From assembly GCA_035499655.1 (NCBI GenBank), contig DATJYL010000197.1, positions 25,255 through 89,254 on the forward strand: a DNA stretch of 64,000 nucleotides, written 5' to 3'. Numbering within the stretch: position 1 is the first letter of the stretch; each line of letters opens with the position of its first letter. The notes below the pieces were generated by a model, which ran no database searches, was not told the DNA's origin, and saw only the letters and a program-made list of their open reading frames with translations. This document shows, piece after piece, positions 3,124 through 55,214 of this stretch. The DNA comes from Pirellulales bacterium. GTDB lineage: Bacteria > Planctomycetota > Planctomycetia > Pirellulales > JADZDJ01. The translations under genes were made by a program, and so were the position numbers.

Positions 3124-3334
3124 GCTGGCACTTTGCGTTTGCCAGCATCGCTAGCGGCTTTGCCGATTTTCAATAACCGGAAACATTCCCGCATCCGACA
3201 CACTTCTCTCAAGCGGCAAGGTTAGACGGTCGAATGATAGGACGGCGGTGTTTTGCGCGCGAAGTGCCGTCCTGCGCTCCGAATGAACGGTCGAGTAGAC
3301 ACGGCAGACACCATTTCCACACCCCTCAACGCAG

Positions 3335-22039: not shown

Positions 22040-22074
22040 GCAATTAGCGGTTAGCGATTAGCAATTAGCGGTTG
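22040..22074. repeat. Heptamer tandem array (GCAATTA GCGGTTA GCGATTA GCAATTA GCGGTTG)
   Basis: Five 7-bp units of the form GCNNTTA, directly abutting the DUF1810 start codon. The same family occurs at 26335 and 43021. Confidence 0.85.
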
Positions 22075-24614: not shown

Positions 24615-25433
24615 ATGGACATGCTCAAGCAAACGGTTGGATTTATTGGAGCAGGACAAATGGCGCGAGCGCTGGCTCGTGGATTTACCACCGCCGGTTT
24701 GCTAGCAGAAACGCAAATGGTGGCTGCCGATCCGGTGGCCGCGGCCCTGGCGGAATTCCAGCGTTTGCTGCCGGGGTGCAGTACGGAGCGCGAGAATGCC
24801 GAGGTTGCCCGGCGCAGCGACATCATGGTGCTGGCCGTCAAGCCGCAACAAGCCAAAACCGCGCTGGCCGAGCTGCGCGGCGCCCTGGGAAAAGACAAAT
24901 TGGTAATCTCCATCGTGACGGGCATCCGCTTGCAGGCACTAGCGGAAGGGTTGGGGCCGTGTCGATTGGTGCGCGTGATGCCGAATACGCCGTGCCTGGT
25001 GGGGCAAAGCGCCAGTGCGTACTGCTTGGGACCCGGCGCTACCCAGGCGGACGCCGAGCTGGTGGCCCAACTGCTGGGCTCGGTAGGCGTGGCCATACAG
25101 TTGGATGAAAAACTTTTGGATGCGGTCACCGGATTGTCCGGCTCGGGTCCGGCATACGTGTACCTGATGATTGAAGCATTGGCCGATGGGGGCGTACGGC
25201 TGGGACTTCCACGGGAAGTCGCTCTGAAATTGGCGGCTCAAACCGTGAAAGGGGCGGCGGAAATGGTGCTGACGACGGGCGATCATCCGGGCGTGCTCAA
25301 GGACCGCGTTGCCAGTCCCGGCGGAACGACGATTGCCGGCCTGCACGTCATGGAAAACCACGGCGTACGGGGAGCGTTGATTTCCGCCGTTGAAGCGGCG
25401 GCCCGCCGCGCAACGGAATTGGCAAACGGCTAA
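24615..25433 (+). CDS. proC: Pyrroline-5-carboxylate reductase
   Basis: N-terminal NADP-binding motif VGFIGAGQMARALARGF, then VMPNTPCLVGQSASAY, GSGPAYVYLMIEALADGGV and SPGGTTIAGLHVME. Confidence 0.9.
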   Translation: MDMLKQTVGFIGAGQMARALARGFTTAGLLAETQMVAADPVAAALAEFQRLLPGCSTERENAEVARRSDIMVLAVKPQQAKTALAELRGALGKDKLVISIVTGIRLQALAEGLGPCRLVRVMPNTPCLVGQSASAYCLGPGATQADAELVAQLLGSVGVAIQLDEKLLDAVTGLSGSGPAYVYLMIEALADGGVRLGLPREVALKLAAQTVKGAAEMVLTTGDHPGVLKDRVASPGGTTIAGLHVMENHGVRGALISAVEAAARRATELANG

Positions 25434-25539
25434 GCGAAGCGTATATACTTGCAAAGAGAAGCGATTGTCTGGAACGATTCACCTTAAAAACTAATGACAA
25501 AATTCGCGGGTCGAACTTCGTGCTCAGCGATTTGCATTT

Positions 25540-25782
25540 ATGTCTATTTTTTGCATTGTTGACGACAAGCATATTCCCTTGTACCGCATCGTGTGGATCG
25601 CGGCGGTGCCGCACTTTTGCGGCCATGACGATTGCACCCAAGAGGGCAACTACGAAATCCGCTTGGAACAAGGAGAATCGGTGTGGGCCAAGCGCGAGGA
25701 GCGCGATGCCGTGCTGAATGCACTGGAGAATTGGCAAGGCAGCGTGGGGGGAGAAGACGAAGAATGGGAAGAACCGCAGTGA
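25540..25782 (+). CDS. Hypothetical small protein (80 aa), Cys/His-containing, acidic C-terminus
   Basis: Clean ORF with plausible composition (…VPHFCGHDDCTQEGNYEIRLEQGESVWAKREERDAVLNALENW…). No family recognised. Confidence 0.45.
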   Translation: MSIFCIVDDKHIPLYRIVWIAAVPHFCGHDDCTQEGNYEIRLEQGESVWAKREERDAVLNALENWQGSVGGEDEEWEEPQ

Positions 25783-25850
25783 TATGATTCTCGTATACGT
25801 GTACCTCTGATTTACTTCCGGCTGGCGCCGACCTGCGAGAAACTTTGCCC

Positions 25851-26333
25851 ATGTCCACTTTCGAAAATCACGACTACAAATGGCGCGAAACCTATTTCGT
25901 GCTGTTCGATTCGGCGCGGCGGCCGATGCTGGAACAGGTCAAGCGCCGCTTGCTCAAAATTAATCCACGTTTCGAATTGAGCAACGGCGAGGCCGACGAG
26001 GCCGGCCACATTGATTCGCTTTCGCTTCGTTCGCCGCAAGATTACGCAGCCATGGACATCAGCTACGTATCAGGCGAAGAAGTGTCGGACCAGGTGGATG
26101 AGCTGCAACGGGACATGAAAGGCAATGTCGATGCTACGGATCGACCCAAGCTGGCCCAGCTTTCCCAGTGCGATGCCAAGTTCGACATTCTGCATTTCGA
26201 ACAGGTTTCCAACGATGAGGAAGAGGACGACGGGGAAATGCTCGACCCCAGTGCGTTGCTCGGCGTGATGGATGCCCTGATCGAACTGACCAAAGGCGTG
26301 GGCGTGGATCCGCAATCGGGCAGTTTGATGTAA
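25851..26333 (+). CDS. Hypothetical acidic protein
   Basis: 160-aa ORF with coding-like composition. No recognisable motif. Confidence 0.5.
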   Translation: MSTFENHDYKWRETYFVLFDSARRPMLEQVKRRLLKINPRFELSNGEADEAGHIDSLSLRSPQDYAAMDISYVSGEEVSDQVDELQRDMKGNVDATDRPKLAQLSQCDAKFDILHFEQVSNDEEEDDGEMLDPSALLGVMDALIELTKGVGVDPQSGSLM

Positions 26334-26334
26334 A

Positions 26335-26383
26335 GCGGCTAGCAATTAGCAATTAGCGACTAGCAATTAGCGGATAGCGATGA
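26335..26383. repeat. Heptamer tandem array (GCGGCTA GCAATTA GCAATTA GCGACTA GCAATTA GCGGATA GCGATGA)
   Basis: Seven 7-bp units begin 2 nt after the stop at 26333, between convergent genes. Confidence 0.85.
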
Positions 26384-26394
26384 GCAGACGCTTG

Positions 26395-26724
26395 CTAGTT
26401 GCTTTCTTGACCCAACTGCCGCAGCAGGTCCAAGGTATAAATGCCGGTGCTGTGGCCGTCGCTGAATTCGATGGAGTAAGCGTAATTTCCCACGGGCTCC
26501 ATCTTAGCGATTTGCAGCGGCAGGGCTTCTGCTGCCGACAGCACGGGCAACAAGTTGGCGGATGGCGGGGCTGCGGAACGTTTTTCTCGGCAAGTGGCAC
26601 ACGGGCAGGCATCGCGCAGTTCGCGGAACGAATACTGGCGGCGCGCGCCATCGCTCCAATCGATGATTAAGGCATTTTCGCCCGTGCGAGACAGTTTAAT
26701 CGGATGAGATGACGTAGAACTCAT
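26395..26724 (-). CDS. DUF971-family protein (gamma-butyrobetaine hydroxylase N-terminal-like zinc-binding domain)
   Basis: LIIDWSDGARRQYSFRELRDACPCATC...YAYSIEFSDGHSTGIYTLDLLRQLG matches the DUF971 pattern. It has a 4-nt overlap with the upstream ligase gene. Confidence 0.8.
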   Translation of the reverse strand: MSSTSSHPIKLSRTGENALIIDWSDGARRQYSFRELRDACPCATCREKRSAAPPSANLLPVLSAAEALPLQIAKMEPVGNYAYSIEFSDGHSTGIYTLDLLRQLGQESN

Positions 26725-28010
26725 CCTCGCCGCTCCCGCTTGTCAATAAATCGCTTCCCTTTTCCTTCGAATCGGGGCAGCGAACCCAAGGGAACGGTTT
26801 CTACCTCGACGCGCAGCCCAATCCGCAATTTAAATTCCTGCATAATTCGATCGGGCTGTTGCAGTCGATCTTCCACTTCGATCCGCAAGCGGTCCATTTC
26901 GGAAACTTTGTACACCGTGGCGCGGTACTCCACCACTTCGGGAAAGCTGCGCAAAATATGGTCTATGCTGCTGGGAAACACATTGACGCCGCGAACCACC
27001 AGCATGTCGTCGTTGCGTCCCAATACGCCGCCATTAAGCAACACGAAGCGGTTGGTTCCTGGATGCCGCCAGGTGGGTCGCACCACGTCGCCAGTGCGAT
27101 AGCGCAACACGGGACAACCGGCTCGACCCAAATTGGTGATGACCAATTCCGCTTCTTCGCTATCTTCCGCCGGGCCACCAGTGGCCAACGACAGAAACTC
27201 GGCAATGTACTCGGCTTCGACCACGTATAATCCTTGACCTTGCGAATCGCCGAATCCCCAGGGACCCACTTCGGTGGCACCGCAGTGATCGTGAACCTGC
27301 GCGTTCCATAATTGTTGCAGCCTGGCGCGAACGGCCGGCACTGATCCGCCCGGTTCGCCCGCTAAAACCAAGACTCGCACGCCGAATTGTGCGACGTCCA
27401 GATCGTGATGTCCCGCCACTTCAGCCAAATGCAAAGCATAACTGGGGGTGCAACACAACACCGTGGGCTCATTGTGGCGGGCCAAATCCAAGCGTTGCAG
27501 CGAGCTCATGCCGCCGGTGGGAATAACCAACGCCCCGCGCTGGCAAAACGATTCATACGCGCCCCAAAAGCCGATGTGCGGGCCGAACGAAAAGGCCATC
27601 AACACGCGATCGCCGGCGCGAATGTTCGCCGCGTCCAGCACGTATTGCCAGCACTGCAGCACCCATTGCCAATCGTCGGGCGTATCGAGCACGGCCAAAG
27701 GCCGACCGCTGGTGCCGGAAGTTTGATGAAAGCGAGAATATCGCTCCCGCGGCCAGGTGTGGTTGCGGGCTGTATCACCGCCGCTGGCCGAAACGACAAG
27801 TTCCTCTTTGAACGTGAACGGCCAGCGTGCGAACTCCGCCAGCGAATCTACGGGCCGTTTCATCCGGGCCAGCTTTTGCGCGTAAAACTGATTGGCGGGC
27901 AAGATCTGGTCCAGCAGCGCATTGAGCCGCAGCAGTTGATATTGCTCCAACTCGGCGCGGGGCAACGATTCCAAGCGGCGACGTTCAGCAGCAGTCGTGG
28001 GTGTCATCAC
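26721..28010 (-). CDS. Phenylacetate-CoA ligase-family (PaaK / F390 synthetase-like) adenylate-forming enzyme
   Basis: The family-typical adenylation motif is HQTSGTSGRPL. Length is 429 aa, with YRTGD and C-terminal ...GKGKRFIDKR. Confidence 0.85.
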   Translation of the reverse strand: MMTPTTAAERRRLESLPRAELEQYQLLRLNALLDQILPANQFYAQKLARMKRPVDSLAEFARWPFTFKEELVVSASGGDTARNHTWPRERYSRFHQTSGTSGRPLAVLDTPDDWQWVLQCWQYVLDAANIRAGDRVLMAFSFGPHIGFWGAYESFCQRGALVIPTGGMSSLQRLDLARHNEPTVLCCTPSYALHLAEVAGHHDLDVAQFGVRVLVLAGEPGGSVPAVRARLQQLWNAQVHDHCGATEVGPWGFGDSQGQGLYVVEAEYIAEFLSLATGGPAEDSEEAELVITNLGRAGCPVLRYRTGDVVRPTWRHPGTNRFVLLNGGVLGRNDDMLVVRGVNVFPSSIDHILRSFPEVVEYRATVYKVSEMDRLRIEVEDRLQQPDRIMQEFKLRIGLRVEVETVPLGSLPRFEGKGKRFIDKRERRG

Positions 28011-28127
28011 TGAATTCTAGGCCGGACGGTGTTTTTTTGTAGATCGCTCTGCAGACCGAGCCATGAGCAAAACGCGAGCAAAAATCAACGGTTTCAAAGG
28101 ATGTTTCACCAGGACAATCAAGAAGAA

Positions 28128-29387
28128 TTATTTCCCGCCGATGGAAATCAGATGCGACAGGGTGCGGAGGTACATTTTGCCGTCGGCGATGGCGGGGGTG
28201 GCCTGGCTGCCTTCGCCCAGCGGATTGCGCGCCAGCTGCTTATATTCGTCCGCGGCGGCCAGCACGACCACATCGCCATCGAGGGAGATGCAATAGATTC
28301 GGTCGCCCACGCGGACCGGGGAACCGTAAAAAATTCCGCCCACCCGCTGCCGCCAGTGAACTTTGCCCGTGGGCACGTCGATGCAACTGACAATTCCGCC
28401 GTCGCCCCACAGGAACGCCAAATCGCCGGCGGTGCAAATGGTGGTCACATACGGCGCCGACGATTTGGGAATGCTGTAGACCAATTGGTACGGGCTGCCA
28501 TCTTTGTTGCCGGGCTTGATGGCCACGACCATGTTATTTCCCTTGCCCTCCTGCCCCTCGCCACAGTTGGCTAAAATCAAACCGTCGGCCAAGACGGGCG
28601 AACCGACGGGCCGCAGTTTGAACACCGGCGCTTCCCAATTCACGGCGCCGGTTTTCAAATCGTGGCTGGTGATGCCGTAGGCCCAACTGCAGACGATGAG
28701 TTCGCGGCCGGTCGGCGTATCGAGGATACAGGGGGTGGCATACGAAGCATTCTGGCGGTTGTCGGCGTACTTGCGAGGAATTTTCCAGCGCTCTTGCCCG
28801 GTGGCCGAGTCAACGGCAATCAGAAATCGTTGATCGCCTTCTTGATCGTTGGTGATGATGACCTCGTCGTCCACCACAATCGGCGAAGTGCCAAAGCCGT
28901 GCTGGCTGATGAATGGTCCCAGATTGATTTTCCACACTTCATCGCCATCGTGGGTTAACGCCTGCAGGGTGAACTCGTCGGCCGAGGCCCAGGCCAAATA
29001 AATCCGCTTGTCGTCCAAAGCCGGCGTGCTGACGGCAAAGTTGTTTTGCGCGTGGACGTGATATTTGGTTCCGGGAAAATCTTTCTGCCAAATTTTTTGT
29101 CCATCTTTGGCGCTAAGACACAGCACATGGCGCGTGGCGGTATCGGGATCGGCGCCGGTGACAAACACCTTGTCGCCCCAAACAACCGGCGACGAATGCC
29201 CCACGCCCGGCAGCTCCACTTTCCAGTTATAGTCGCTTTCGGTCCATTGGATGGGAATGGTTGCCGCCGCTTCGCTTTGCCCCTGGCCGTTGGGACCACG
29301 GAAGCGCGTCCACTGTTGGGCATATGCCGCTGCGCCGGTCAACCAGACGCACAGACAAGCCCCAAGCATCGTGCGGCGAGAAATCAT
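28128..29387 (-). CDS. Secreted PQQ-like (BamB-like) beta-propeller repeat protein
   Basis: Signal peptide MISRRTMLGACLCVWLTGAAAYA. W/G-rich propeller blades recur (SSPVVWGDKVFVTG, LAWASADEFTLQAL, TSPIVVDDEVIIT, GSPVLADGLILANCG, ATPAIADGKMYLRT). Confidence 0.8.
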   Translation of the reverse strand: MISRRTMLGACLCVWLTGAAAYAQQWTRFRGPNGQGQSEAAATIPIQWTESDYNWKVELPGVGHSSPVVWGDKVFVTGADPDTATRHVLCLSAKDGQKIWQKDFPGTKYHVHAQNNFAVSTPALDDKRIYLAWASADEFTLQALTHDGDEVWKINLGPFISQHGFGTSPIVVDDEVIITNDQEGDQRFLIAVDSATGQERWKIPRKYADNRQNASYATPCILDTPTGRELIVCSWAYGITSHDLKTGAVNWEAPVFKLRPVGSPVLADGLILANCGEGQEGKGNNMVVAIKPGNKDGSPYQLVYSIPKSSAPYVTTICTAGDLAFLWGDGGIVSCIDVPTGKVHWRQRVGGIFYGSPVRVGDRIYCISLDGDVVVLAAADEYKQLARNPLGEGSQATPAIADGKMYLRTLSHLISIGGK

Positions 29388-29683
29388 GAACGAACCTTTT
29401 AATCGGCGTATGCTCTGTTAACGAATATCGCTGACACGATGGTAACGCATGCAGCCGGTATATTCTAGGATTGGCGTCGCGCGGTAGTGGGTCAGTTTGA
29501 AATGTAGAGGCGGCTGTCCTCAGCGGCTGACGCAACAATCGCCGAAAAAACGGCCGGGGACAGCCGTCGCTACATTCCTCATTGATCAAACTGACCCATT
29601 ACCCGTCGCAGGGCAAGTTCCCATTCCCCATTCTTTCTGCTGCGATAGAATTTGTTGCCAGCCTATTCTCCACGGTATTTTCC

Positions 29684-30706
29684 ATGCTTACAGAAACGCT
29701 TGGTCGCCTGGCGGCCGGGGAAAACTTATCGCAGTCTGAGGCGACCGCCGTTTTCGACGCGGTGATGGAAGGTCACGTACCCGAGGAGCAAATCGCCCTG
29801 CTCTTGACCGCGCTGCGAGCCAAAGGCGAAACGGTTGACGAAATTGCCGGTGCGGCAGCTTCGCTGCGGAAGCAGATGACGCCAATTCGCACGCGGCATT
29901 CCATTGTAATCGACACCTGCGGCACCGGCGGCGGCGGTTCGAAGCTGTTCAACATCAGCACGGCGGCGGCGCTGGTGACGGCCGCTACAGGGACGCCAGT
30001 CGCCAAGCATGGCAATCGAGCGGTAACCAGCCGCACTGGGTCGGCCGACGTATTGGCCGCTTTGGGCGTCAACATTGCGGCCGAGGTAACCTGCGTGGAG
30101 CGTTGTCTCAATGAATTGGGGATTTGTTTTTGCTTTGCGCCGCTGGTACACCCTTCGATGAAGCGGGTGGCTGAAGTTCGCCGCCGCTTGGGTATGCCCA
30201 CCATCTTCAATTTGCTAGGGCCCTTGTGCAACCCGGCGGGCGCTCCGTTTCAATTGCTGGGTGTCGGCCGGCCAGAGTCGCGGCCAGTCATGGCTCAAGC
30301 ATTGGCTAAGTTGGGCACCAAGCATGCAGTGGTTGTTAGCGGTGGCGAAGGACTTGGCGAAGTGAATATCGCTGGTCCGACGGAGGCGACGGAAGTGATG
30401 GCTGATGGCAGCATTCGCGAATTTCAGTGGATTCCCAGCCTGTTCGGTTTGCCGACGGCCGATTCGCTCGATTCGCTGGTTGTGAAAAACGCGGAACAAA
30501 GCGCCGAGATGATCCGCGAAGTTTTGGCAGGCAAGCCCGGACCTGCGCGCGACATCGTGATTGCGAATAGCGCAGCAGCCACGTGGATTGCTGGAAGCGA
30601 AACAACGTTGCAGACTGCGGCCAGCAGGGCAAAGATGATCATCGATAACGGGGCCGCGAGCCGCACACTCGCCAATCTCGTCGCAATGACAAACGCAACA
30701 CGATGA
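29684..30706 (+). CDS. trpD: Anthranilate phosphoribosyltransferase
   Basis: [57 protein letters not shown]. The ATG at 29684 is preferred over the upstream extension. Confidence 0.9.
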
Positions 30707-33201
30707 GCGAACAACATCATCACAAGCTTGGCCATGCCAACAGGCTGCCGACGGCCGGCGGCGAAAAAGTGCGCGATCCGGTGTGCGGCATGCTGATCGA
30801 TCCGGCTCGCGCCGCGGGCAAGTTCGAATATCAGGGCCAGACATATTATTTTTGCAATCCCGGCTGCCTGAAAAAATTCCAAGCGCAGCCGGATGTGTAT
30901 TTGTCTTCCGTCCCGGTCGCCAGCGGACCACAGCTTTCCGTTTTGCAGCCAGCACGCGGAATAGCGGTTCATGCATTGCACCCTCACCCCAGCCCTCTCC
31001 CAAAGGGAGAGGGAGCAAAAGCGAGTGTTCAATTCACGTGCCCCATGCACCCGGAAGTGCGGCAAAACGGGCCGGGAAGCTGCCCGATTTGCGGCATGGC
31101 GTTAGAGCCGCAAAATGTCATCGTTGGGGAAGAAGCCAATCCTGAACTTGCCGATATGTCGCGCCGTTTCTGGATTAGCATGGCATTGAGTGCGCCGCTA
31201 CTAGTTGTTGCGATGCTCGACATGCTGCCTGGGATGCCGCTGCAACATTGGTTCGGCGCGGCTACGCTGCGGTGGATCGAGTTTGCCCTGGCCACGCCGG
31301 TCGTGCTATGGGCGGGGCTGCCGTTTTTCCAGCGCGGTTGGCAATCGGTGGTACATCGCTCGCCTAACATGTTCACGCTGATTGCCATGGGCACGGGCGC
31401 CGCATACGGCTTCAGCGTGGTGGCCGCGTTTGCGCCGGGATGGTTTCCGGAATCGTTGCGCGGGCACAACGGACAAGTTGAAGTTTATTTTGAAGCGGCC
31501 GCTGTGATTATCACGTTGGTGCTGTTGGGGCAAGTTTTGGAATTGCGAGCGCGGGGGCAAACTTCCAGCGCCATTCGCGCATTGCTGGGATTAGCCCCCA
31601 AAACCGCACGTCGAATGAATGCCGATGGCAGCGAACACGATGTGCCGCTGGATCAGGTGCAAGTGGGCGATCGGCTGCGGGTGCGGCCTGGTGAAAAAGT
31701 GCCGGTGGACGGTGAAGTGCTGGAAGGCGCCAGCAGCGTGGATGAATCGATGATCACCGGCGAGCCAATCCCGGTGGAAAAACAAACCGGCGACCGTGTC
31801 ACCGGCGGCACGGTCAACGGCACGGGTTCGCTGGTGATGCAGGCGCAGCGCGTCGGCAGCGAGACGTTGCTGGCGCAAATTGTTCGCATGGTGAGCGAGG
31901 CCCAGCGCAGCCGCGCGCCGATCCAGCGATTAGCCGATGTCGTGGCCGCATGGTTTGTGCCGGCGGTGATTGGCGTGGCGATTCTTACGTTCACCCTTTG
32001 GTCGACCGTGGGGCCGGAGCCACGATTGGCTTACGCTTTGGTCAATGCGGTGGCGGTTTTGATCATTGCTTGTCCTTGTGCCTTGGGACTGGCAACGCCG
32101 ATGGCAATTATGGTAGGCACCGGACGGGGCGCCATGGCCGGCGTACTGGTGAAAAACGCGGAAGCATTGGAAGTGTTGGAAAAAGTCGACGTGCTAGTGG
32201 TCGATAAAACTGGCACGTTGACGGAAGGCAAACCACGATTGATGACGGTGGAGGGCGCAGGGAGCAGGGCGCAGGAAGCAGGATATAAAGCCGCGACCGT
32301 TGGTAGCGCTGATGACAAGTCGGACGAACAACTCCTTCGCCTAGCCGCCGCGCTGGAAAAGGCCAGCGAGCATCCGTTGGCGGCGGCGATTGTTACCGGC
32401 GCCCAGGAAAGGCAACTCGCAGTTCCTGACGTCGTGAAGTTTCGTTCCATCACCGGAAAGGGCGTGACGGGAAACATCGAAAATCACGATGCGGCGCTCG
32501 GCAACGTCAAATTATTGGAAGAGTTGAGAATTGCCGTGCCGAAGGCTGCTTTGGATCGGGCGGAAACGCTGCGGCGCGATGGCCAAACCGTCATGTTTGT
32601 GGCCATCGACGGCACGTTGACCGGATTATTAAGCGTGGCCGATCCGATCAAAGCAAGTACGCCCGAGGCGATTGGGTTTCTGCACGCCGATGGTGTGCGG
32701 ATCGTGATGCTGACGGGCGACAGCCGCACCACAGCCCAGGCAGTGGCAAAAAAATTGGGCATTGACGAAGTTCTAGCAGAAGTTGCTCCGGGCGAAAAAG
32801 GGAACGCGATTAAACATTTGCAGAGTGAGGGGCATATTGTGGCGATGGCCGGCGACGGAATCAACGATGCGCCGGCGCTAGCGCAAGCACAGGTGGGTAT
32901 TGCGATGGGGACCGGCACGGATGTGGCGATGGAAAGCGCCGGACTGACATTGGTGAAAGGAGACTTGCGCGGCATTGCCAAAGCCCGGCGTCTGAGCCGC
33001 GGCGTGATGCGCAACATCCGTCAGAATTTGTTTTTCGCCTTCGTGTACAACGCATTGGGTGTGCCGATTGCAGCAGGAGTGTTGTATCCCATCTTCGGCC
33101 ATGCTGCACTGTTGAATCCGATGATTGCCGCAGCGGCGATGAGCTTCAGCAGCGTTTCGGTGATCAGCAATGCCCTTCGCCTGCGGCGGCTTGCGTTGTG
33201 A
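30703..33201 (+). CDS. copA: Copper-translocating P1B-type ATPase with N-terminal TRASH/YHS-like and CxxC...CPxC metal-binding modules
   Basis: DPVCGM...[12 protein letters not shown] is TRASH/YHS-like, and TCPMHPEV...CPICGM is a second Cys module. The TM CPC motif is [11 protein letters not shown]. Also present: [20 protein letters not shown]. The ATG overlaps the trpD stop (ATGA). Confidence 0.9.
30978..31013. repeat. Palindromic repeat element embedded in-frame in copA
   Basis: GCACCCTCACCCCAGCCCTCTCCC-aaa-GGGAGAGGG with a perfect 9-bp hairpin (30993-31013). The first 24 nt recur, reverse-complemented and 23/24 identical, at 44001..44024. Confidence 0.75.
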
Positions 33202-33508
33202 AGAAAAACCGGCACTACGATTGAACGCCGTTGCGAATTGATGGAACAAACCGCTGATTCACGCTGATCAGCAGCAATGGATTGCCAGTAGCTTTTCTCC
33301 GGACTATCGCCAATTAACGTGTGTTAGCGGTTTGTTCATTGAACAGAAGGAAACAGAGACAGCGGAGAATTAGGGCCATTTTTCAAGAATCTGTTGCGAC
33401 TGTAGCCGAATGCTCACAGCATCCGGACCGGACGGCGTGGCCGTCCGGCTATTTGGTGTCACGTTTCGAGAAATTTTCCAAAAAATCTTCGCCGGTGCTG
33501 CAAAACAG

Positions 33509-33535
33509 TTGACTTGGGGGGGGGGGGGGTATGCT
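33509..33535 (+). promoter_or_regulatory. Candidate promoter whose spacer is a G14 homopolymer
   Basis: TTGACT (33509-33514), then T+G14 as a 15-nt spacer, then TATGCT (33530-33535), upstream of the PEP-CTERM protein gene. Confidence 0.4.
33516..33529. repeat. Homopolymeric G14 tract
   Basis: Counted directly: 14 consecutive G between T33515 and T33530. Confidence 0.95.
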
Positions 33536-33590
33536 GGGCAGTTCTGGAAAAGAGAAGAGCGGTTTCGTTTCCACTCCGATTCACTCATCG

Positions 33591-34367
33591 ATGAAGGAAC
33601 CGCTCGTGAATTGCATTGCGAGAGCCATTACAGCGTTGGTAAAACTCACCCGCACGACTAGCAGGTTATCTGTAATCGTACTTTTACTTTGCGCAACAAA
33701 GTCCTACGGTGCCATTTATGTTGTGGCAGATCGGTCCGTATTCGACGCTGAAACCGCTGGTCTATCGACCATTGATTTCAATTCATATTCTAGCGGCGCG
33801 CTGACGAATTACAGCACCCCAAGCGGCTTGACAGCAACGGGAATAGAATTCGTCGGCAACGTGACCGGTGGTGGAAACTTTCTTTATGCTATCCAACCAG
33901 CATATTATCCGCCAATATACGACCAATGGCCAACCGGATCGAGTCCAACCGTCTTGCAAGGGCCGGGAAGTGCGGGTGCGGTGGCAGTAGGTGAACTCGA
34001 CGTGAGTGGTCCATTAGGAACTGCTGTCGGCACGGGATTTTACACCGTTACTGATGGGATTGGACCTGTGCCCCAATCCGTCCAGGTTTATGTTGACACT
34101 GGGTTTTCAGACCTTACCTTTACCGTTCCCACTTCGGGCGCACCAACGATAGATTTTATTGGGATCATTGATACGGAGTCGGGCGAACCTATACAAGACG
34201 TTTCGTTCACCGCTGGCGGCACTGCGACGTATCCGAATCTGTCAGATTTTCAATACGGTGAATTCGTACCGGCCCCCGAGCCGAGCGGACTTGTGTTGGT
34301 CGCGCTGGGCGGCCTGGCGGCCATCGGTTGTCGCGCGCTGCTGCGGCGGAAGGCCAATGCTGTTTAG
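33591..34367 (+). CDS. PEP-CTERM sorting-domain surface/secreted protein
   Basis: The C-terminus VPAPEPSGLVLVALGGLAAIGCRALLRRK is a PEP motif plus TM plus basic tail. There is an N-terminal signal-like segment (LSVIVLLLCATKSYGA). The start may be 33591 or the ATG at 33531, which directly follows the G tract. Confidence 0.8.
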   Translation: MKEPLVNCIARAITALVKLTRTTSRLSVIVLLLCATKSYGAIYVVADRSVFDAETAGLSTIDFNSYSSGALTNYSTPSGLTATGIEFVGNVTGGGNFLYAIQPAYYPPIYDQWPTGSSPTVLQGPGSAGAVAVGELDVSGPLGTAVGTGFYTVTDGIGPVPQSVQVYVDTGFSDLTFTVPTSGAPTIDFIGIIDTESGEPIQDVSFTAGGTATYPNLSDFQYGEFVPAPEPSGLVLVALGGLAAIGCRALLRRKANAV

Positions 34368-34532
34368 AATGGCGCGACTCGCCGATCCCATCGGCGGCTT
34401 TATGGGGGAAGATGTCGAAGCCCTAACTAACTGGCGGAATCGATTGGCGGATGGAATCGAGCAGTTCCCACGTCCTGTGCTGATCGCACCATTACAGACA
34501 ATAGCACAGTGAAAACACTTGCATCCGCTGAT

Positions 34533-34760
34533 TCAAATCCAGTCACGCCGTTTCATTATCTTGATGAATTCATCAAGCATCGTATGAACTTCAACATCAG
34601 ATGCTTGAGGAAACGCGCATTGTAGTTTTGACTGGAGATTTCTGCAGCCTTCGTCAAACCACCGCGGTCCGGCCAGCAGTTTGTCCGCAGGATTCATTTC
34701 CCGGGCATTACGAATTTTCTCGCGAAACAATTCGTCGGCGAGTTCCTTGGTCGGTTGCAT
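34533..34760 (-). CDS. Hypothetical small protein (75 aa)
   Basis: Clean ORF with helical, charged composition. No family recognised. Confidence 0.45.
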   Translation of the reverse strand: MQPTKELADELFREKIRNAREMNPADKLLAGPRWFDEGCRNLQSKLQCAFPQASDVEVHTMLDEFIKIMKRRDWI

Positions 34761-34855
34761 TTGGTAATACTCCCTGGAAGCGATTCTCTCGCAGTCGCAC
34801 TATAGCTATGAATTTACACAGAGCGTCCTCTATCGTCTATCGGATAAAGCCTAAC

Positions 34856-34931
34856 GGTGGTGGGACAATTTGAAATTCCGACAGCCGCTTTTTCCGACTG
34901 ACACAGTCGGGCTATGTTCAAATTGGCCCAC
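34856..34931. repeat. 76-bp nested-palindrome element, copy 2
   Basis: 75/76 identical to 7069..7144. It lies 9 nt downstream of the MBL-hydrolase stop codon. Confidence 0.85.
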
Positions 34932-34939
34932 TACCAAGC

Positions 34940-35743
34940 CTAACACAGTTCCAGCCGCAGGCCGTCGTAGGCTAATTCCATGCTCGGCGGCAGCATTGCG
35001 TTGGTGGCAGCGTGCTCCAAATCGTGGCACATGTGGGTGAAGTAGGTGCGCTTGGGCCGCAAACGCTGGGCAACTTCCACAGCCTGATCCAGGCTGTAAT
35101 GCGTGACGTGCGGTCGTGGGCGCAAAGCGTCGAGGATGAGCACATCCAGCCCGTTCAGTTGCGAAAAGCTTTCCGGTGGAATGCCGTTGGTATCGGTGCA
35201 GTAAGCGATATTGCCGATGCGAAAGCCGAGCACTCGGAACTTGCCATGCCACAAGCGGATGGGAATGATCGGCTGGCCCAAGAGTGTAAACGGCTCCAAC
35301 GAAATTCGTCGCAGGTCTAACTGCGGCACGCCGCCGCCGTAGCCGTGATTGTCTTCGGCAAAGGCGTAATCGAACGATTTGCGAATTCGGGTCTCCACAA
35401 AATCTTCGCAGTACACCGGCAGCGCATGACCAAGGTAGTGCGGAAATAACCGCAAATCGTCCAGGCCGAACACGTGGTCGGCGTGATCGTGGGTATATAG
35501 CACCGAATGCACCAGACCAACTTTCTCGCGCAACAATTGAGTGCGCAAGTCTGGTGGAGTATCGATCAACAAATTCCCCTCGGGCAAACCCAGCACCAGC
35601 GAGCAACGGGTCCGCTGGTTCTTCGGATCGCTGCTGGTGCAAGTTGGACAGCCGCAGCCAATGCAAGGCACCCCGACCGATGTCCCCGTTCCCAGGAATA
35701 TCAATTGACCTCGAATATCAGCGGTTTGCGGTTGCAAGGGCAT
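34940..35743 (-). CDS. MBL-fold metallo-hydrolase (PhnP-like)
   Basis: LGTGTSVGVP, the CxxC-type insert IGCGCPTC, the metallo-beta-lactamase motif YTHDHADHVFGLDDLR, and a C-terminal FTHM..H. The ATG at 35743 is preferred. Confidence 0.85.
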   Translation of the reverse strand: MPLQPQTADIRGQLIFLGTGTSVGVPCIGCGCPTCTSSDPKNQRTRCSLVLGLPEGNLLIDTPPDLRTQLLREKVGLVHSVLYTHDHADHVFGLDDLRLFPHYLGHALPVYCEDFVETRIRKSFDYAFAEDNHGYGGGVPQLDLRRISLEPFTLLGQPIIPIRLWHGKFRVLGFRIGNIAYCTDTNGIPPESFSQLNGLDVLILDALRPRPHVTHYSLDQAVEVAQRLRPKRTYFTHMCHDLEHAATNAMLPPSMELAYDGLRLELC

Positions 35744-36028
35744 AACGAAAAGATGGAAGGAAACAGCGAGCAATAAGAATGTAAAACCGGACTAGTTGGA
35801 AACGATGGCGTTATGCCCCAACAACTTACGACGTTTACCAATCGCCGAACCGTTCTTGACCCACTCTACCAAATCGCTATAAACTTCTTTGTCGGCAAAC
35901 TCTTACGTCCATTATTGGAAGTTGGCGCGCCCCTTGCATTATTGTAACAGGCACGGGGATTCTGCCGAACTGGCATCCCGTACGCGCGCGTCCAACGAAA
36001 GCTGCTCACTTTGGAAAACGGCCAGACG

Positions 36029-39000
36029 ATGGAATTTTGGGAACAACTGTGGGAAGTCATTGGGAATTTTTTCACCGGTCTAAGCCGGTCGGTGGAGCGC
36101 GGCATTACGTCGCTGTTTGGTTCGTCCAATGCCCGATATGTCAAGAAGTTACAGCCGAAAATCGCCGGCATCAATGCTCTGGAGCCCAAATACCAGACCA
36201 TGAGCGATGCGGATTTGAAGCAGCAAACCGCGCTTTTCCGCCAGCGGTTGAATGAAGGCGAAACCCTGGACGACTTGCTGGACGAAGCGTTTGCCGTTTG
36301 TCGCGAGGCCGGCCGGCGCTTTTTGGGCATGCGGCACTACGATGTGCAATTGATCGGCGGCATCGTGCTGCACAGCGGCTCGATTGCCGAAATGATCACC
36401 GGCGAAGGCAAAACGCTGGTGGCCACGCTGCCGGCATATCTGAATGCCTTGGAAGGTAAAGGCGTGCACGTGGTTACGGTGAACGATTATTTGGCTCGCC
36501 GCGACATGGAATGGATGGCGCCGGTATACATGAACCTGGGGCTGACCGTGGGGGCGATCCAAGCCGGCATGGACGGTGCGGAGCGGCAGAAAGCATATGC
36601 GTGCGACATTACCTACGGCACGAATAACGAGTTCGGCTTCGATTACCTGCGTGACAACATGCGGCCGGCTGCGCGGGACGATTACCACTTTCCCAAGCAC
36701 ACCCAGCAGGTGCAAGGACCGTTGCATTACGCCATTATTGACGAAGTCGACAACATTCTTGTGGACGAAGCGCGCACGCCGCTCATCATTTCCGGTCCGG
36801 CGCACGACGACGTCGCCAAATACACCAAGGCCGACAAGCTGGCGCGGCAACTGACCAAAGACGCTCATTTCGAAGTCAAGGAGAAAGAACATACAGTCGT
36901 GCTCACCGACGAAGGGGTCCGGGCCGCGGAACGGTTTGCCGGAGTGGAAAGTTTTTACACGGCCGGCAACATGGAATGGCCGCATCTAATCGACAACTCG
37001 CTGAAAGCCCATCATCTGTACAAGCGCGACGTGAATTACGTCATTGAAGACGGCGAGATCATCATTGTCGACGAATTCACGGGCCGCAAAATGCCCGGCC
37101 GCCAATGGAGCGACGGGCTGCACCAAGCGGTCGAAGCCAAGGAAGGCGTGCGCGTGAAGGAAGAAACGCAAACGCTGGCCACGATCACGCTGCAGAATTT
37201 CTTCAAGCTGTACAAAAAAATCTGCGGGATGACCGGTACGGCCATGACCGAGGCGAACGAGTTCTGGAAAATCTACAAGCTCGATGTGATTGCCATTCCG
37301 CCCAATCGGACGCTGCAACGCATTAACCACGCCGACGTGATTTACCTCACCGAGAAAGACAAATTCAACCAAGTGGCCAATGAAATCGAACGGATTCACA
37401 AGTGGGATACTGTGGAGCTGACCGACGGCAATTGGCTGGTCGGAACGGTGAAAGGCGAGAACGAACAAGAAATCACTTTCGACGACAAAGACAACCGCGA
37501 GCTGCGCACCATCCTGCGCTCGAAAATCAAGTTGCTTCAAAAGCGCGGGAGGCCGATTTTGGTCGGTACCGTTTCGATTGAAAAAAGCGAACGGCTGTCG
37601 GCACTTTTAGAGCGGCGCGGTATTCCGCATCAGGTGCTCAACGCCAAGCATCACAAGCGCGAGGCGGAAATTGTGGCCCAGGCAGGCCGCAAAGGAGCGG
37701 TTACGATTGCCACCAACATGGCCGGTCGCGGCACCGACATTATCCTCGGCGGCAATGCCGACGCCATGGCGTGGGCCAAGCTTCAAGATAAATATCCGAC
37801 ACGATTGGAAGTGCCACGCGACGAATGGGATGCCTTGGTGAAGGCAATTGAAGAACACGAACAGACGAAGGCCGAAGGGGCCGAGGTGAAAGCCTTGGGC
37901 GGCTTGCACATCATCGGCACCGAACGGCATGAGGCCCGCCGCATCGACAACCAGCTGCGGGGCCGTTCCGGGCGCCAGGGTGATCCCGGCTCGGGCCGTT
38001 TTTATCTATCGCTGGAAGACGACCTGATGCGGATTTTCGCCGGAGAGTGGGTGAAGAGTGTGCTAACCCGGCTGGGCATGAAAGAGGGTGAGGCCATTGA
38101 AAGCCGGATGGTTTCGCGCCGGATCGAAGGGGCGCAAAAGAAAGTCGAGGAGCGCAACTTCGACATCCGCAAAAACCTGCTGGAATACGACGAAGTGATG
38201 GACGAGCAGCGGAAGCGCGTCTATTCGTACCGGCAGCGGATTCTCGACGGCGGAAACTGCAAGCAGTTGATTCTGGACATGATTGACCGCCAGATCGAAC
38301 ACAACCTGACTGTGTTCCTGGATAAAGATTACGGCGCGGAAACTTTTGCCAAATGGGCGGGTAATCTGCTGTCGGTGGAATTAGAATCCAAGGAATTCCG
38401 CAATCTCGATTTCCAAACCGCCCAGCAACAGGCCAAGGACGAAGCCGAGCGAATCGCCGAATCGCAAGTGTTTGAAGCGGTGGAAGAAAATCTTCCCGAG
38501 AATACGGAAGAAGACTGGAATTGGGAGGCGCTGGCCAAATTTTCCAACTCGCGCTGGAAGACGAACTTTCGCGATCGCGATTTGAAAAAGCACGGCCGCG
38601 ACGGCGTGGCCGAATTTATGATCGAGCAAGCACGCGAGTCGATCCGGCAGATCGATCTGGGTGAGGGCGCCCGCTTTTTGGAACCCGATTTGGGCGTGCG
38701 CACGGCCTGCGGCTGGGCGCAATATAAATTTGGAATTGTCGTTCAGCCGGAAGAGGCACGAGATTTGGAGCCGGACGCATTCGTCGAGCTGCTGCGCCGC
38801 AAGGCTCGCAAAGCATACGAAATGAAGGAAGCAGAATTTCCAGTGATGGCGGGCTTGCTGCACTTCACCACCCGGGACAGCGCCGGGCAAAAGCGCTACG
38901 ACCGCGATCAGTTGGTCGTGTGGGCGCGCGACCGGTTTCACGTGGATTTATCGCTTGACGACTTGAGGAACAAGCAGCAGGACGAAATTCGGGTTGTGTT

Positions 39001-43015: not shown

Positions 43016-43020
43016 TTGAA

Positions 43021-43103
43021 GCGATTAGCGATTAGCAATTAGCAATTAGCGAAGCACAGATTGGTGCCTCGTTGCTAATTGCTAACCGCTAATCGCTAGT
43101 CGC
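43021..43103. repeat. Heptamer arrays in inverted orientation forming a long imperfect hairpin between convergent genes (probable bidirectional terminator)
   Basis: The left arm is GCGATTA GCGATTA GCAATTA GCAATTA GCGAAGC. After a ~15-nt loop, the right arm is GTTGCTA ATTGCTA ACCGCTA ATCGCTA GTCGC, which reads as reverse-complemented units. The right arm supplies the last codons and the stop of the minus-strand gene. Confidence 0.75.
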
Positions 43104-44312
43104 TGTTTTCCGTAATTCCGTCGACGAAATATCTTGTCGGAATAATTCGCTGGGAACTTCATCGCAGAGTTGTCGCAACGCCTGGGGCAACGACAAATCG
43201 CCGCATGATTGAAATTGATGATCGACCAGCCGGCCGAAAACTAGAAACCGGCAACCACGCTCGGCGATTCTTTGAAAAGCTGCGTTGGCGGCCGCCGGAT
43301 CGTTCCCATAGTAGCGCGGTTGGCCGATCCGGAGCATCGTATCTGCCCCGACGATGAACGTGGCGCCGGGAAACAGTTGCGACTTCTCGTCGAACGTGGG
43401 CGCGCGGGTTAGCCATAGCGGCAAGTGTTTTTCGTTGAATTGGGCAACACGTAGCTGAATTTCCGTGTAATCCAGCGGCGGTTTGTCAACGTTTTCGACG
43501 GATAATTCAAATTCCACCGGCAGGCTAAGCCGGGCTGCGGCAACTTCGGCCATCTGCAAATGTCCGGCATGCAGCGGATTGAATGCGCCGGGGAAAATGG
43601 CACGGGGTTTCCTGGGTTTGCCCCCCGGCGACTCGCCGGGGGCTAACTGCGGACTCGGTATCAACAACTTCTCAGTTCGACCAAGCAATAGATTTTGCCA
43701 CTGCGAAGGTGCGACAGTGCGCGTGGATTGAATATCTTCGGGCTCAAGCAGTGGCAGCGAAAGCTGCTCGGCAATGCCAAACGCTTCGGCCGCAGCGTTG
43801 AGCACCATTTGGGCGGCAATCGACTCCTCTGCAAGTCGGCTGCGGCGACCTTTTACGAGTTCCAATGAATGGGTAACTGTTGCCGCTGCGGTTTGCAGCG
43901 CGACGTGGATGCGGTGCGGACCACGCTTGGGCCGATCGCTGGCCAGGCTGGCCGTGCAACCAATGCCGACGGGCGGCCGCTGTTCTTCCTCTTCCTTGAT
44001 GGGAGAGGGCTGGGATGAGGGTGCTTCTTTCTGTAAATGCCTGGCCCGTTGAAACGCGGCCATGGCCATCAATCGGGCGGTGCGAGCAGAACAAAAACTC
44101 TCCGGCCGGGCATGCAGAAACTCTACCAGCGACGCCACCGAATACGGAACGACTGCTTCTAACACGGTCCGCGAACCGCCGGGCACTGACAGTAAATCGC
44201 CGATGGCCCGACTGCCGCCGCCGGTAACCGCCAGCACCAGTTGGCCAGGGCCGGCATGAATGCGGCGAACGAAATCTTGCCAAGGTATTGGATCGGACAT
44301 GGCGGCCTCCAC
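43089..44312 (-). CDS. Two-domain protein: CinA/PncC-like N-terminal domain fused to a NadD-like (HxGH) nucleotidyltransferase domain
   Basis: The N-terminal part LAVTGGGSRAIGDLLSVPGGSRTVLEAVVPYS...SARTARLMAMAAFQRA parallels the CinA C-domain pattern (ESCTGG...PG.S...V.YS...MA). The C-terminal part AIFPGAFNPLHAGHLQMAE is a cytidylyltransferase-fold (T/H)xGH motif. The assignment comes from motif memory only. Confidence 0.55.
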   Translation of the reverse strand: MEAAMSDPIPWQDFVRRIHAGPGQLVLAVTGGGSRAIGDLLSVPGGSRTVLEAVVPYSVASLVEFLHARPESFCSARTARLMAMAAFQRARHLQKEAPSSQPSPIKEEEEQRPPVGIGCTASLASDRPKRGPHRIHVALQTAAATVTHSLELVKGRRSRLAEESIAAQMVLNAAAEAFGIAEQLSLPLLEPEDIQSTRTVAPSQWQNLLLGRTEKLLIPSPQLAPGESPGGKPRKPRAIFPGAFNPLHAGHLQMAEVAAARLSLPVEFELSVENVDKPPLDYTEIQLRVAQFNEKHLPLWLTRAPTFDEKSQLFPGATFIVGADTMLRIGQPRYYGNDPAAANAAFQRIAERGCRFLVFGRLVDHQFQSCGDLSLPQALRQLCDEVPSELFRQDISSTELRKTATSD

Positions 44313-52961: not shown

Positions 52962-55214
52962 CTATGGTTTTCTTTTGATAGAGCGGCTTAGAAAAATCAT
53001 TGAACCGATTGCCAACAGCGCCAGCGACGTGGGCTCGGGCACCACAAACACCAACGGTGCGCTTAGGCCCGTGGAGTCGCCGGAGGCCGTTTGGGTATTA
53101 GAGCCGGTGATGTAATCGTAGTCGAACCAACCGGTGGCACTAGGATTGGCGGAAGTATTGGTAATTTCCATGCGCATGGCATCGTACATTACGCCGTCGT
53201 TTTGGCTCACGCCGAATGTAAATTCATTGTCGGTCCCGGCGGCATTCAAATCCGAAGTGGGATACTGGAAAGCCAAAAACTTGTACACGCCGGCTACTCC
53301 GCTGCGGACCATGGGATCGCTGTTGCTGCCGCCGAAGTGCCAGATCTCGGTATGGCCATTGAGCGTAACGATCAAACTGGCCTCATTAGCGGCCAGGCCG
53401 ACCGATAAAACCACGTATTGCCCCTGGTTTAATTGAGCGCTGGTGGTGGTGAAGTGAATTTCCCAGGGCGAACCCGTATACATGCTTGGGCCGCCACCGG
53501 CCGTCACGTAGGCGGGAACCAACGTCGGATACAAGTCTTTAGAATTGTCGGCCGGATTATACAGGGCGGGATTGAACAAACCCCATTGATTGGCAATCCA
53601 TTTGTTGGGATCGTTGGTGGCCGGCGTGCTGCCGACGGCTGTGGCGTAATACACCACCTTGCCGTTATTGCCCAAATCAGCCATTTCCTGCCAGTAGTTA
53701 TACGATCCGTAATAATTTCGATTGTCGGCGCCGGTGGCGGTATGCCCGTTCAGGAATTCGTTGGCGGATCGGTTCGGAGTGCCTAGCGTCCAAATGGGAG
53801 CCGCCGTGCCGAAGTTTTCCGGCGTGAACTTTACATTTTGCGGAATGGTTATCAGGTTGGCTTTGACTTGCACGCCGTCGACGCGGGTTTCGCCCCATTG
53901 GCCGTACTCGTAAATGCTCATCCGGTAAGTGCCCGGGGCAATTCCCGAAATCGACGCCGTGCCGTTGGAGTTTACCTGCGCCCAATACTGATACCCCTGG
54001 TGCGATTCCTGAAAGTTGGTGTTGGGGTCCGAAAGCACCAGCGTATTATTGTTGACGTTATTGCTCCAGCCGGCGGAATTTCCAAGGGATATCTGCAACG
54101 AACCACGCTGCGTGGAAGAAACGTAGCCGTTGGCCAGCAGGGTAGAATCCGTATCGTACAACGGAATGTACGACGAGGCCGAGTTGATGGCGTCTTGGTA
54201 AAGCTGCGCAGGCGTTTCGCCGTTGGTGGGCGTCACCCGGAATACGTACGGGCCAAACAGCCGGCTGCTGTCGACACCCTGCGGTGGAACATAGGAATAG
54301 TTACTGTCGCCATAATGGCCCGACAAAAACTCCACCATCAAAATGTTGTTGGTAAACATCAAGTTTTGCTTGGTCGGACCGCCGGTCATGGTCTCTTTGG
54401 AAGGGAGGACAGTGGAAACAGCGTAGTTGGGCCCCACTTCGGTTTGCCCCTGCCAAAACTGGGTGTAGGAGGAATAGTCGTACTTGTTCAAGAAATTACG
54501 GCCGATCAACTGCTCCAGATCGGCGTCGCCATTCAAATCGAGCACTTCCGCTAAATCCAAGCGATTGGCATTGCCGTAACCGGTGGAACTGCCATTGAGT
54601 TCCGCCAATTGGGCCGTCGTGGTGGGCAAATTGGTGACCGTTGCGCCGGGGTTATTGGGGCCGGTGTTGAACTGGTACAGCGTAGAAAACTTCGTTGGGT
54701 CGACCCGCATTAAAAACTGCCCCTGGCCGATGCTGGTGGCAGGATCCGTCGACGCATGGCTCACCTCTTCATACATATGAATCGCCGGATCGTTATTAAA
54801 CATCACGTAATGAAACGAATAGGTGATGGGATTGGTGGGGTTGCCGGAAGAGTTCAAGGTTAGGTTGGATTGCGTGGTGGTCCAGAAGTCAATGTAATTG
54901 CTGGTCTGCTGAAAATTGGCCGTCATGGTGCCGCTGCCAAAGGGCGTGCCGGCAAATTCCGGGTACAGCTTGGAATTGCTGGGATCCAAAATGTTGTCGC
55001 TGTGGCCGGCCACCACGAGGCTGGTAATGTCGGAGCCGGTGGTGCTAAACGTAGCGGTCAGCGCGCCGTTGGAAATAATCCAGTTGTTTCCGCTAACGGT
55101 GCGCGTGATGGCCGCATGGGACACTTGGATCAGACCCAAAGCGCCGCCAAAAAAGAAGATTGTGCACACAACGAGATGGAAACACGGCGCATGGCTGTGA
55201 CCCGCCCTTCTCAT
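52962..55214 (-). CDS. PEP-CTERM-anchored secreted protein, rhamnogalacturonan-lyase (PL4)-like
   Basis: Signal-like N-terminus after ATG 55214. The central segment ISGIAPGTYRMSIYEYGQWGETRVDGVQV and the C-terminal beta-sandwich-like part resemble PL4 lyases from memory. The C-terminus is VVPEPTSLALLAIGSMIFLSRSIKRK (PEP-CTERM). Confidence 0.6.
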   Translation of the reverse strand: MRRAGHSHAPCFHLVVCTIFFFGGALGLIQVSHAAITRTVSGNNWIISNGALTATFSTTGSDITSLVVAGHSDNILDPSNSKLYPEFAGTPFGSGTMTANFQQTSNYIDFWTTTQSNLTLNSSGNPTNPITYSFHYVMFNNDPAIHMYEEVSHASTDPATSIGQGQFLMRVDPTKFSTLYQFNTGPNNPGATVTNLPTTTAQLAELNGSSTGYGNANRLDLAEVLDLNGDADLEQLIGRNFLNKYDYSSYTQFWQGQTEVGPNYAVSTVLPSKETMTGGPTKQNLMFTNNILMVEFLSGHYGDSNYSYVPPQGVDSSRLFGPYVFRVTPTNGETPAQLYQDAINSASSYIPLYDTDSTLLANGYVSSTQRGSLQISLGNSAGWSNNVNNNTLVLSDPNTNFQESHQGYQYWAQVNSNGTASISGIAPGTYRMSIYEYGQWGETRVDGVQVKANLITIPQNVKFTPENFGTAAPIWTLGTPNRSANEFLNGHTATGADNRNYYGSYNYWQEMADLGNNGKVVYYATAVGSTPATNDPNKWIANQWGLFNPALYNPADNSKDLYPTLVPAYVTAGGGPSMYTGSPWEIHFTTTSAQLNQGQYVVLSVGLAANEASLIVTLNGHTEIWHFGGSNSDPMVRSGVAGVYKFLAFQYPTSDLNAAGTDNEFTFGVSQNDGVMYDAMRMEITNTSANPSATGWFDYDYITGSNTQTASGDSTGLSAPLVFVVPEPTSLALLAIGSMIFLSRSIKRKP

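Follow-up and report, generated by a model that had tools for sequence, protein, structure and literature searches.

The window analysed here is a stretch of 64 kb from an NCBI third-party-annotated MAG labelled "Pirellulales bacterium", in which the host contig measures 89,376 nt. At the locus under study, a copper-ATPase gene of the copA type is followed on the same strand by an intergenic region containing a run of 14 G residues (G14) between two promoter-like hexamers, and by a gene for a PEP-CTERM protein (Table 1). Past the PEP-CTERM gene come, on the minus strand, a 75-aa ORF and an MBL-fold gene, with secA beyond them. The remaining window is ordinary chromosome (clpB-like, lptF/G, proC, trpD, kdtA, argS and transketolase genes), and also encodes an ECF sigma factor and a Ser/Thr kinase. 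The PEP-CTERM gene has a GC3 of 0.51, compared with 0.6–0.72 for most of its neighbours, and is contained in a lower-GC segment of ~1.7 kb (about 33.3–34.95 kb). This composition, and the absence of the segment from the conserved MBL–secA neighbourhood of related Pirellulales, make it a probable accessory or acquired gene, which would fit its reading as a surface gene, because accessory surface genes are often atypical and non-syntenic.

Table 1. Features of the copA–PEP-CTERM region, in positions of the window
Feature	Position	Strand	Remarks
Copper-ATPase gene (copA type)	30703–33201	+	Upstream of the tract
Terminator-like hairpin CCGGACGGC-GTG-GCCGTCCGG, then CTATTTGG	33428–33448	+	9-bp perfect stem
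-35-like hexamer TTGACT	33509–33514	+	5/6 to TTGACA
Spacer, 15 nt = T + G14 (G14 at 33516–33529), putative hypermutable element	33515–33529	+	
-10-like hexamer TATGCT	33530–33535	+	4/6 to TATAAT, A2 and T6 present
PEP-CTERM protein gene, HTQ40254.1, locus tag VMJ32_14600	33591–34367	+	PGAP start ATG 33591
Predicted Sec signal peptide MVKLTRTTSRLSVIVLLLCATKSYGA, 26 aa if TTG 33636 is the start	33636–33713	+	Inspection and family N-terminus alignment
PEP-CTERM sorting tail VPAPEPSGLVLVALGGLAAIGCRALLRRK	34269–34349	+	Family alignment, profile matches below cut-off

The intergenic region contains a hairpin with a predicted folding energy of -21.2 kcal/mol (z = -2.5), located 227 nt past the copA stop codon and 60 nt before the -35 box. 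The hairpin would act as a terminator, with a weak T-run; if so, it would end copA transcription, and the PEP-CTERM gene would therefore need a promoter of its own within 33455–33590. Directly after copA, at 33236–33345, is a long imperfect inverted repeat with 25-nt arms that are 80% complementary and a 44-nt loop (-37.9 kcal/mol, z = -3.9), which might be a copA 3' structure or a terminator. In the putative 5' UTR, a 10-bp stem (GAGCGGUUUC at 33557–33566 and GGAACCGCUC at 33595–33604) would enclose ATG 33591; the fold around it is no better than that of shuffled sequence (z = +0.67), and the stem is probably not meaningful. A search against Rfam at gathering thresholds gave no match, the best being a chance-level SAH hit (E = 3.5), and neither the remaining window nor the fetched loci contain a repeat or mobile-element copy of the intergenic region.

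Two kinds of repeat occur elsewhere in the window. An 80-nt palindromic element, composed of outer arms GTGGGACAATTTGAA and TTCAAATTGGCCCAC and an inner hairpin CCGACTG-ACA-CAGTCGG, is present in two copies with 97.5% identity: one at 34856–34935, just 3' of the stop codon of the MBL-fold gene, and one at 7069–7148, between the ORFs 6160–6948 (minus strand) and 7380–8717 (plus strand). It resembles a REP/MITE-like element or a bidirectional terminator, and has no match in Rfam. Short arrays in which the heptamer ATTAGCG is repeated in tandem, with variants such as TAGCAAT, lie between ORFs at 22043–22070, 26334–26386, 43020–43052 (plus strand) and 43074–43104 (reverse complement), so that the two arrays within 43020–43104 face one another in inverted orientation. 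The words attagcg and atagcaat also occur upstream of the homologous gene pair on contig L001 (see below), and a regulator may bind the arrays, or they may be a repeat that occurs genome-wide.

The downstream gene on which the earlier note relied is real and corresponds to NCBI HTQ40254.1 (258 aa, start 33591). A HMMER search returned 111 cluster representatives at E-values up to 0.001, mostly of 205–260 aa. The 60 representatives that were aligned share a short signal peptide, a domain of ~180 aa, and a C terminus in which the VPEP motif, the hydrophobic helix and the RR tail align across the family. In the window protein this C terminus reads VPAPEPS-GLVLVALGGLAAIG-CRALLRRK, corresponding to a PEP motif, a hydrophobic helix and a basic cluster. 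The PEP-CTERM call of the earlier note does not reach the profile cut-offs for the single protein (16.7 versus 20.7 bits for Pfam PF07589, and 13 versus 16 for TIGR02595), and holds at the level of the family, in which PF07589 is found in 33 of 60 members (best E = 1.9e-8).

The core domain of the protein and of its family has no match in Pfam. An AlphaFold (AF2) model built with the family alignment has a pLDDT of 91.7 (a three-sequence input gave a pLDDT of 31), and its core is a β-sandwich. Foldseek comparisons of the model gave weak matches to CBM29, CBM22, CBM61, CBM16, CBM6 and a gingipain adhesin domain, with E-values of about 1e-4 to 1e-3, TM-scores of only 0.3–0.5 and ~12% identity. 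The product is thus predicted, on the basis of the model, to be a secreted PEP-CTERM protein with a β-sandwich resembling carbohydrate-binding modules (CBM) and adhesins, that is, a lectin-like protein. A Pfam scan of 34 window ORFs found no exosortase (EpsH/Xrt). The window encodes a second PEP-CTERM-tailed protein at 52962–55268 on the minus strand (768 aa as scanned; the full open frame, 52962–55385, encodes 807 aa), which carries the polysaccharide-lyase family 4 domains II and III (fn3_3, CBM-like) and suggests that a PEP-CTERM system is in use in the source genome. No homopolymer of at least 7 nt lies near the 5' end of this second gene.

The N termini of the family bear directly on where the gene begins. 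The earlier note had allowed for a start at ATG 33531, immediately after the tract, as do Prodigal-type calls (the 278-aa protein P0004). This codon overlaps the -10 box and adds a non-conserved N-terminal extension, whereas the family N termini align ~15 residues downstream of the PGAP start and indicate a downstream start, probably TTG 33636. ATG 33531 is almost certainly not the start codon on this evidence; the likely start is TTG 33636, or ATG 33591. The predicted signal peptide follows the pattern KLTRTTSR-LSVIVLLLCA-TKSYGA, which by inspection aligns with the signal peptides of the family.

The tract lies outside the coding sequence, with ATG 33591 following 62 nt and TTG 33636 107 nt further on. 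The exact reading of 33509–33535 is TTGACT T GGGGGGGGGGGGGG TATGCT, in agreement with the layout claimed at the outset (TTGACT, T, G14, TATGCT, with a 15-nt spacer). The accompanying claim that long homopolymers are otherwise absent also holds throughout the 64 kb: all other G or C runs are of 6 nt or shorter, A runs of 7 or shorter and T runs of 8 or shorter. By extrapolation of the geometric decay of run lengths (a ratio of ~0.2 per added base), ~3e-5 G or C runs of at least 14 nt are expected in the window, and G or C runs reach at most 9 nt in ~1.0 Mb of loci taken from related Pirellulales and from other genomes. Long G runs are normally purged, so the persistence of this one suggests either recent expansion or maintenance.

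The flanking hexamers are also unusual. With hexamer frequencies measured in the window, the probability that the tract is flanked within 0–3 nt by a -35-like hexamer (at least 5/6) on one side and by a -10-like hexamer (at least 4/6, with A2 and T6) on the other is ~6e-4, a post hoc figure, as the reading was picked once the tract had been seen. The exact layout pattern, with up to one mismatch, occurs once against 0.08 expected. The tract with its flanking hexamers exceeds chance, the first of these figures being post hoc.

Within 33202–33640, TTGACT-15-TATGCT is the top-scoring sigma-70-like pair (9/12, with spacers of 14–20 nt allowed); all other pairs score 8/12 or less and have poor spacers. 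A standard scan restricted to spacers of 16–18 nt found no promoter-like site on the plus strand of 33100–34600. These scores use a TTGACA/TATAAT-type consensus, from which the Pirellulales' own consensus may differ and which is weakly supported within the window. Such a consensus is plausible in the source organism, because the regions upstream of genes are enriched in sigma-70-like pairs and in the TTGAC pentamer: in 42 upstream regions of the window there are 5 pairs against 1.9 in shuffled sequence and 10 pentamers against 4.8 (p ~0.03 for each, weak tests), and pairs are approximately nine-fold denser upstream (0.95 per kb) than in coding sequence (0.11 per kb). Examples in the window are secA (TTGACC-18-TAAACT) and transketolase (TTGACG-18-TAAACT). 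From the position of the boxes, transcription is predicted to start at about 33540–33543.

Sigma-70 promoters work well with spacers of 16–18 nt. The spacer is 15 nt with G14, and 16, 17 and 18 nt with G15, G16 and G17, respectively, so that the arithmetic behind the proposed gain of 1–3 G is borne out. The assembled 15-nt spacer lies outside the functional range, and the consensus state should therefore be weak or off, going by spacer length. Two further points count against the promoter reading: TATGCT agrees with the -10 consensus at only four of six positions, and a pure G/C spacer is unfavourable in E. coli.

Comparison with homologues gives supportive, not strong, evidence. The closest homologue, P0002 (50% identity), is encoded on JGI contig L001, where it stands in tandem with a paralogue (2044–4082); both tandem proteins are small β-sandwich proteins with a dockerin type I domain ahead of the PEP-CTERM tail. 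The 350-nt upstream region of P0002 contains a single promoter-like match, TTGACT-17 nt-CACAAT at 3027–3055, of which ~0.3 would be expected by chance in a region of that size. Its TTGACT begins 87 nt before the Met aligned with 33591, compared with 82 nt in the window, and its spacer is non-repetitive. This suggests a conserved promoter position, with a poly-G spacer in the source genome. Beyond the hexamers, DNA alignment of the two upstream regions shows no real homology, and the motif TTCTGGAAA common to both is at chance level. The homologues on contigs L002 and L087 have neither a homopolymer nor a TTGACT-type promoter layout.

No orthologous locus suitable for a comparison of tract length was found in the JGI metagenome contigs or the GTDB species genomes. 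An exact 34-mer from the 5' coding sequence has no match in the JGI metagenome contigs, and scans of metagenome and genome contigs with the family profile found no relative of the locus. When the GTDB species genomes were scanned with the MBL-fold neighbour, the best match had 82% amino-acid identity. Many of the fetched Pirellulales loci share the divergent MBL–secA pair, but in no fetched relative were copA and the PEP-CTERM gene found beside it, and the intergenic region therefore has no counterpart there.

On these grounds, G14 may be the spacer of a sigma-70-type promoter of the PEP-CTERM gene, forming a promoter-spacer simple-sequence contingency locus—a reading that we favour tentatively, at slightly less than an even chance. 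A run of 14 G would gain and lose G by slipped-strand mispairing during replication, and by analogy with shorter tracts G14 would be expected to slip often. In the G14 state, with the -35 and -10 boxes 15 nt apart, the promoter would be weak or off; G15–G17 variants, with spacers of 16–18 nt, would transcribe the PEP-CTERM gene, and tracts shorter than G14 would be fully off. The consensus state would thus be off or low, on variants being in the minority, and the population would always contain a minority of cells that do, or do not, display a lectin-like surface protein sorted by an exosortase. Here we infer promoter function, transcription start, tract instability and fitness benefit alike. 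Of the earlier note's contingency reading, the anatomy has stood, with no better candidate in the intergenic region; the three available assemblies all carry G14.

A different and, in our estimation, unlikely explanation is that the tract is real and mutable yet functionless, left behind by slippage in an accessory segment of low GC and little constraint, with coincidental hexamers. The constant G14 in all three assemblies, the non-functional length of the assembled spacer and the weak -10 match are all compatible with this explanation, as is the finding that no homologue has the tract. The segment is atypical and non-syntenic, and hence may have been acquired recently and the tract not yet purged. 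However, coincidence would have to account for the low joint probability of the two flanking hexamers (the post hoc value given above), and for the placement of the tract exactly where a promoter is needed, between the terminator-like hairpin and the gene. An easy neutral origin and persistence also sit poorly with the absence of long G runs from the rest of the 64 kb and from the ~1 Mb of related loci.

Less probable still is that the tract regulates the gene otherwise than as a -35/-10 spacer. One variant, likened to opc and to Bordetella fim, places the tract upstream of or within a different promoter, where its length would set the binding or phasing of a regulator. A non-sigma-70 promoter is conceivable here because Planctomycetes have many ECF sigma factors, of which one is encoded in the window, and in Treponema pallidum the regulating poly-G of tprE/G/J/L lies upstream of the start site and not in the spacer (PMC7864442). 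A second variant invokes a G-quadruplex, in the non-template strand or the 5' UTR, with a threshold at 15 G: arithmetically, G14 permits two tetrads only, whereas 15 or more G permit three, and ViennaRNA with G-quadruplexes enabled gives a jump between 14 and 15 G, with energies that are not quantitatively trustworthy. Against both variants, 33202–33640 holds no alternative promoter candidate, no Rfam family matches, and the close fit of both flanking hexamers would be left unexplained. An inverted repeat of 10 nt flanking the promoter (TTTTCCAAAA/TTCTGGAAAA) was rejected, as it is at chance level for a region of such size.

There is only a very small probability, in our judgement, that the run is a sequencing or assembly artefact or that its length is badly miscalled, for example through the poly-G signal of two-colour chemistry or homopolymer errors. 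Illumina accuracy drops past long G runs, and the source is a short-read MAG. Moreover, one MEGAHIT assembly (ENA analysis ERZ27256576) breaks the locus in two, 62–91 nt ahead of the tract, between contig k141_1583651, whose last position is 33454, and a contig that starts at 33425; the two overlap by exactly 30 nt, a stretch that contains the GC-rich hairpin 33428–33448. This split may reflect poor or error-prone coverage beside the hairpin and the poly-G. The break point (33425–33454) is bridged in ERZ27256499.

The same assemblies nevertheless argue against an artefact. The second contig of ERZ27256576, k141_2805996, begins at window position 33425 and passes through G14 into the PEP-CTERM gene, and the 13,509-nt MEGAHIT k141 contig k141_1914098 of ERZ27256499 is 100% identical to window 25055–38563, a span from upstream of trpD through copA to secA that includes G14. 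An identical G14 is thus present in three assemblies: the NCBI window, ERZ27256576 and ERZ27256499 (fetched loci L004 and L085). Both k = 141 contigs have unique sequence on either side of the run, so k-mers, and hence reads, span it. Dark-cycle poly-G sits at the 3' ends of reads and should not yield an internal 14-mer with matching flanks, and a poly-G node could produce a false join only with k or more G residues, whereas the flanks are adjacent in independent contigs. With two k141 contigs from two ENA analyses passing through 33509–33535, the question of an artefact, which the earlier note had raised against itself, is answered to the extent that an artefactual tract is unlikely on assembly evidence; the exact length of 14 is less certain than ordinary sequence.

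The three assemblies are consensus sequences from at least two ENA analyses, and at least two of the assemblies may come from related samples, and they show 0 mismatches and 0 SNPs over up to 13.5 kb. Given this identity, they represent one clone as far as their sequences tell, and because a single clone was sampled, the identical consensus lengths of G14 neither support nor refute variation of the tract.

A translational switch, in which the tract would lie inside the coding sequence behind a start at or before ATG 33531 and shift the frame with its length, is the least credible explanation and is rejected, because the tract is non-coding and TGA 33510–33512 ends the gene frame just before it: the frame is open from 33513 through the tract, Prodigal-type callers do start at ATG 33531, and by frame arithmetic G13 or G16 would fuse the upstream ORF 33410–33661 in frame, yet Pfam has no match to that ORF, a signal peptide of 20–28 aa aligned from ~33636 stands at the N terminus of ~110 family members, and a start upstream of the tract would bury this peptide behind a non-conserved extension.

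The layout favoured here, a poly-G promoter spacer, has two established counterparts. In the porA gene of Neisseria meningitidis, a poly-G tract of 9–11 G lies between the -35 and -10 boxes of a sigma-70-type promoter, where gain or loss of one G alters the spacer, and both its variation and the effect on expression have been demonstrated: relative to 11G, expression is ~2-fold less with 10G and ~13-fold less with 9G, and the 11G tract switches at ~5e-5, ~1000-fold more often in a mutS mutant (PMC3639595). The Pirellulales locus resembles porA in having a G homopolymer between the -35- and -10-like boxes of a surface-protein gene. It differs in its tract of 14 G and spacer of 15 nt, in a layout known from sequence alone, in its source—an uncultured member of the Pirellulales rather than a host-restricted pathogen—and in its product, a PEP-CTERM lectin-like protein rather than a porin.

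In T. pallidum tp0126, which encodes an OmpW homologue, a poly-G tract also lies between the -35 and -10 boxes, transcription is optimal with a 17-nt spacer, and the annotated ORF start was moved downstream of the tract, revealing a signal peptide (PMC7864442). The evidence in T. pallidum consists of fragment-length analysis and reporter assays on tracts of 7–12 G; tracts of 7–11 G are heterogeneous within isolates, and in the tpr genes the tract is upstream of the transcription start and not strictly in the spacer (PMC7864442 and work cited there). The present locus shares with tp0126 both the poly-G spacer and a start that, re-placed downstream of the tract, exposes a signal peptide. Unlike the T. 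pallidum tracts, that of the Pirellulales has 14 G, and its switching is proposed from sequence.

Other promoter repeats differ in type or position. In Bordetella pertussis fim, poly-C lies between the activator site and the -10 box; Haemophilus influenzae hif has TA repeats in the spacer, and Mycoplasma hyorhinis vlp a poly-A spacer. In N. meningitidis opc, poly-C covers the -35 box (PMC7864442). Each of these is likewise a repeat in promoter DNA that controls a surface structure, and all are experimentally proven and belong to host-associated bacteria. Within the PVC superphylum, (G)8 and (C)10 tracts in capsule genes of Akkermansia muciniphila are in silico phase-variation candidates (PMC3048395), and a poly-G tract in Chlamydia pmpG is a proposed phase-variation site (PMC4488443). 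These too are poly-G/C tracts proposed for envelope functions, within the superphylum to which the Pirellulales belong; in contrast to the tract in a candidate promoter spacer described here, they are shorter than G14 and lie within coding sequence (translational), and such coding-region homopolymers are the only ones proposed before in the superphylum. The Pirellulales locus is a candidate member, by its sequence layout, of the known porA-type class, and a contingency locus of the porA/tp0126 type is plausible, unproven.

The locus also carries a lesson for annotation: Prodigal-type callers choose a start codon, ATG 33531, overlapping the putative -10 box, and the probable cause is that the G-run resembles a ribosome-binding site.

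Host-adapted pathogens (Neisseria, Haemophilus, Campylobacter, Helicobacter and Treponema, for example) are regarded as the main users of simple-sequence-repeat phase variation. A full-text literature search found nothing on phase variation in Planctomycetes or in PEP-CTERM proteins. The broader proposal, that free-living, non-pathogenic Planctomycetota use simple-sequence contingency loci, with a poly-G spacer stochastically switching an exosortase-sorted lectin-like protein, is a possibility that we put forward with some doubt, at appreciably less than an even chance. If true, an environmental bacterium would be hedging its bets in attachment, or against phage or grazers, by a switch with no earlier example in the phylum Planctomycetota and none reported for a PEP-CTERM substrate. 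Taken alone, the locus is one unproven case of a well-understood mechanism, in an unusual phylum and lifestyle. If verified, it would serve as a simple marker by which population heterogeneity in metagenomes could be counted from reads, and would mean that environmental bacteria vary their exosortase-sorted surface proteins by the mechanism that pathogens use.
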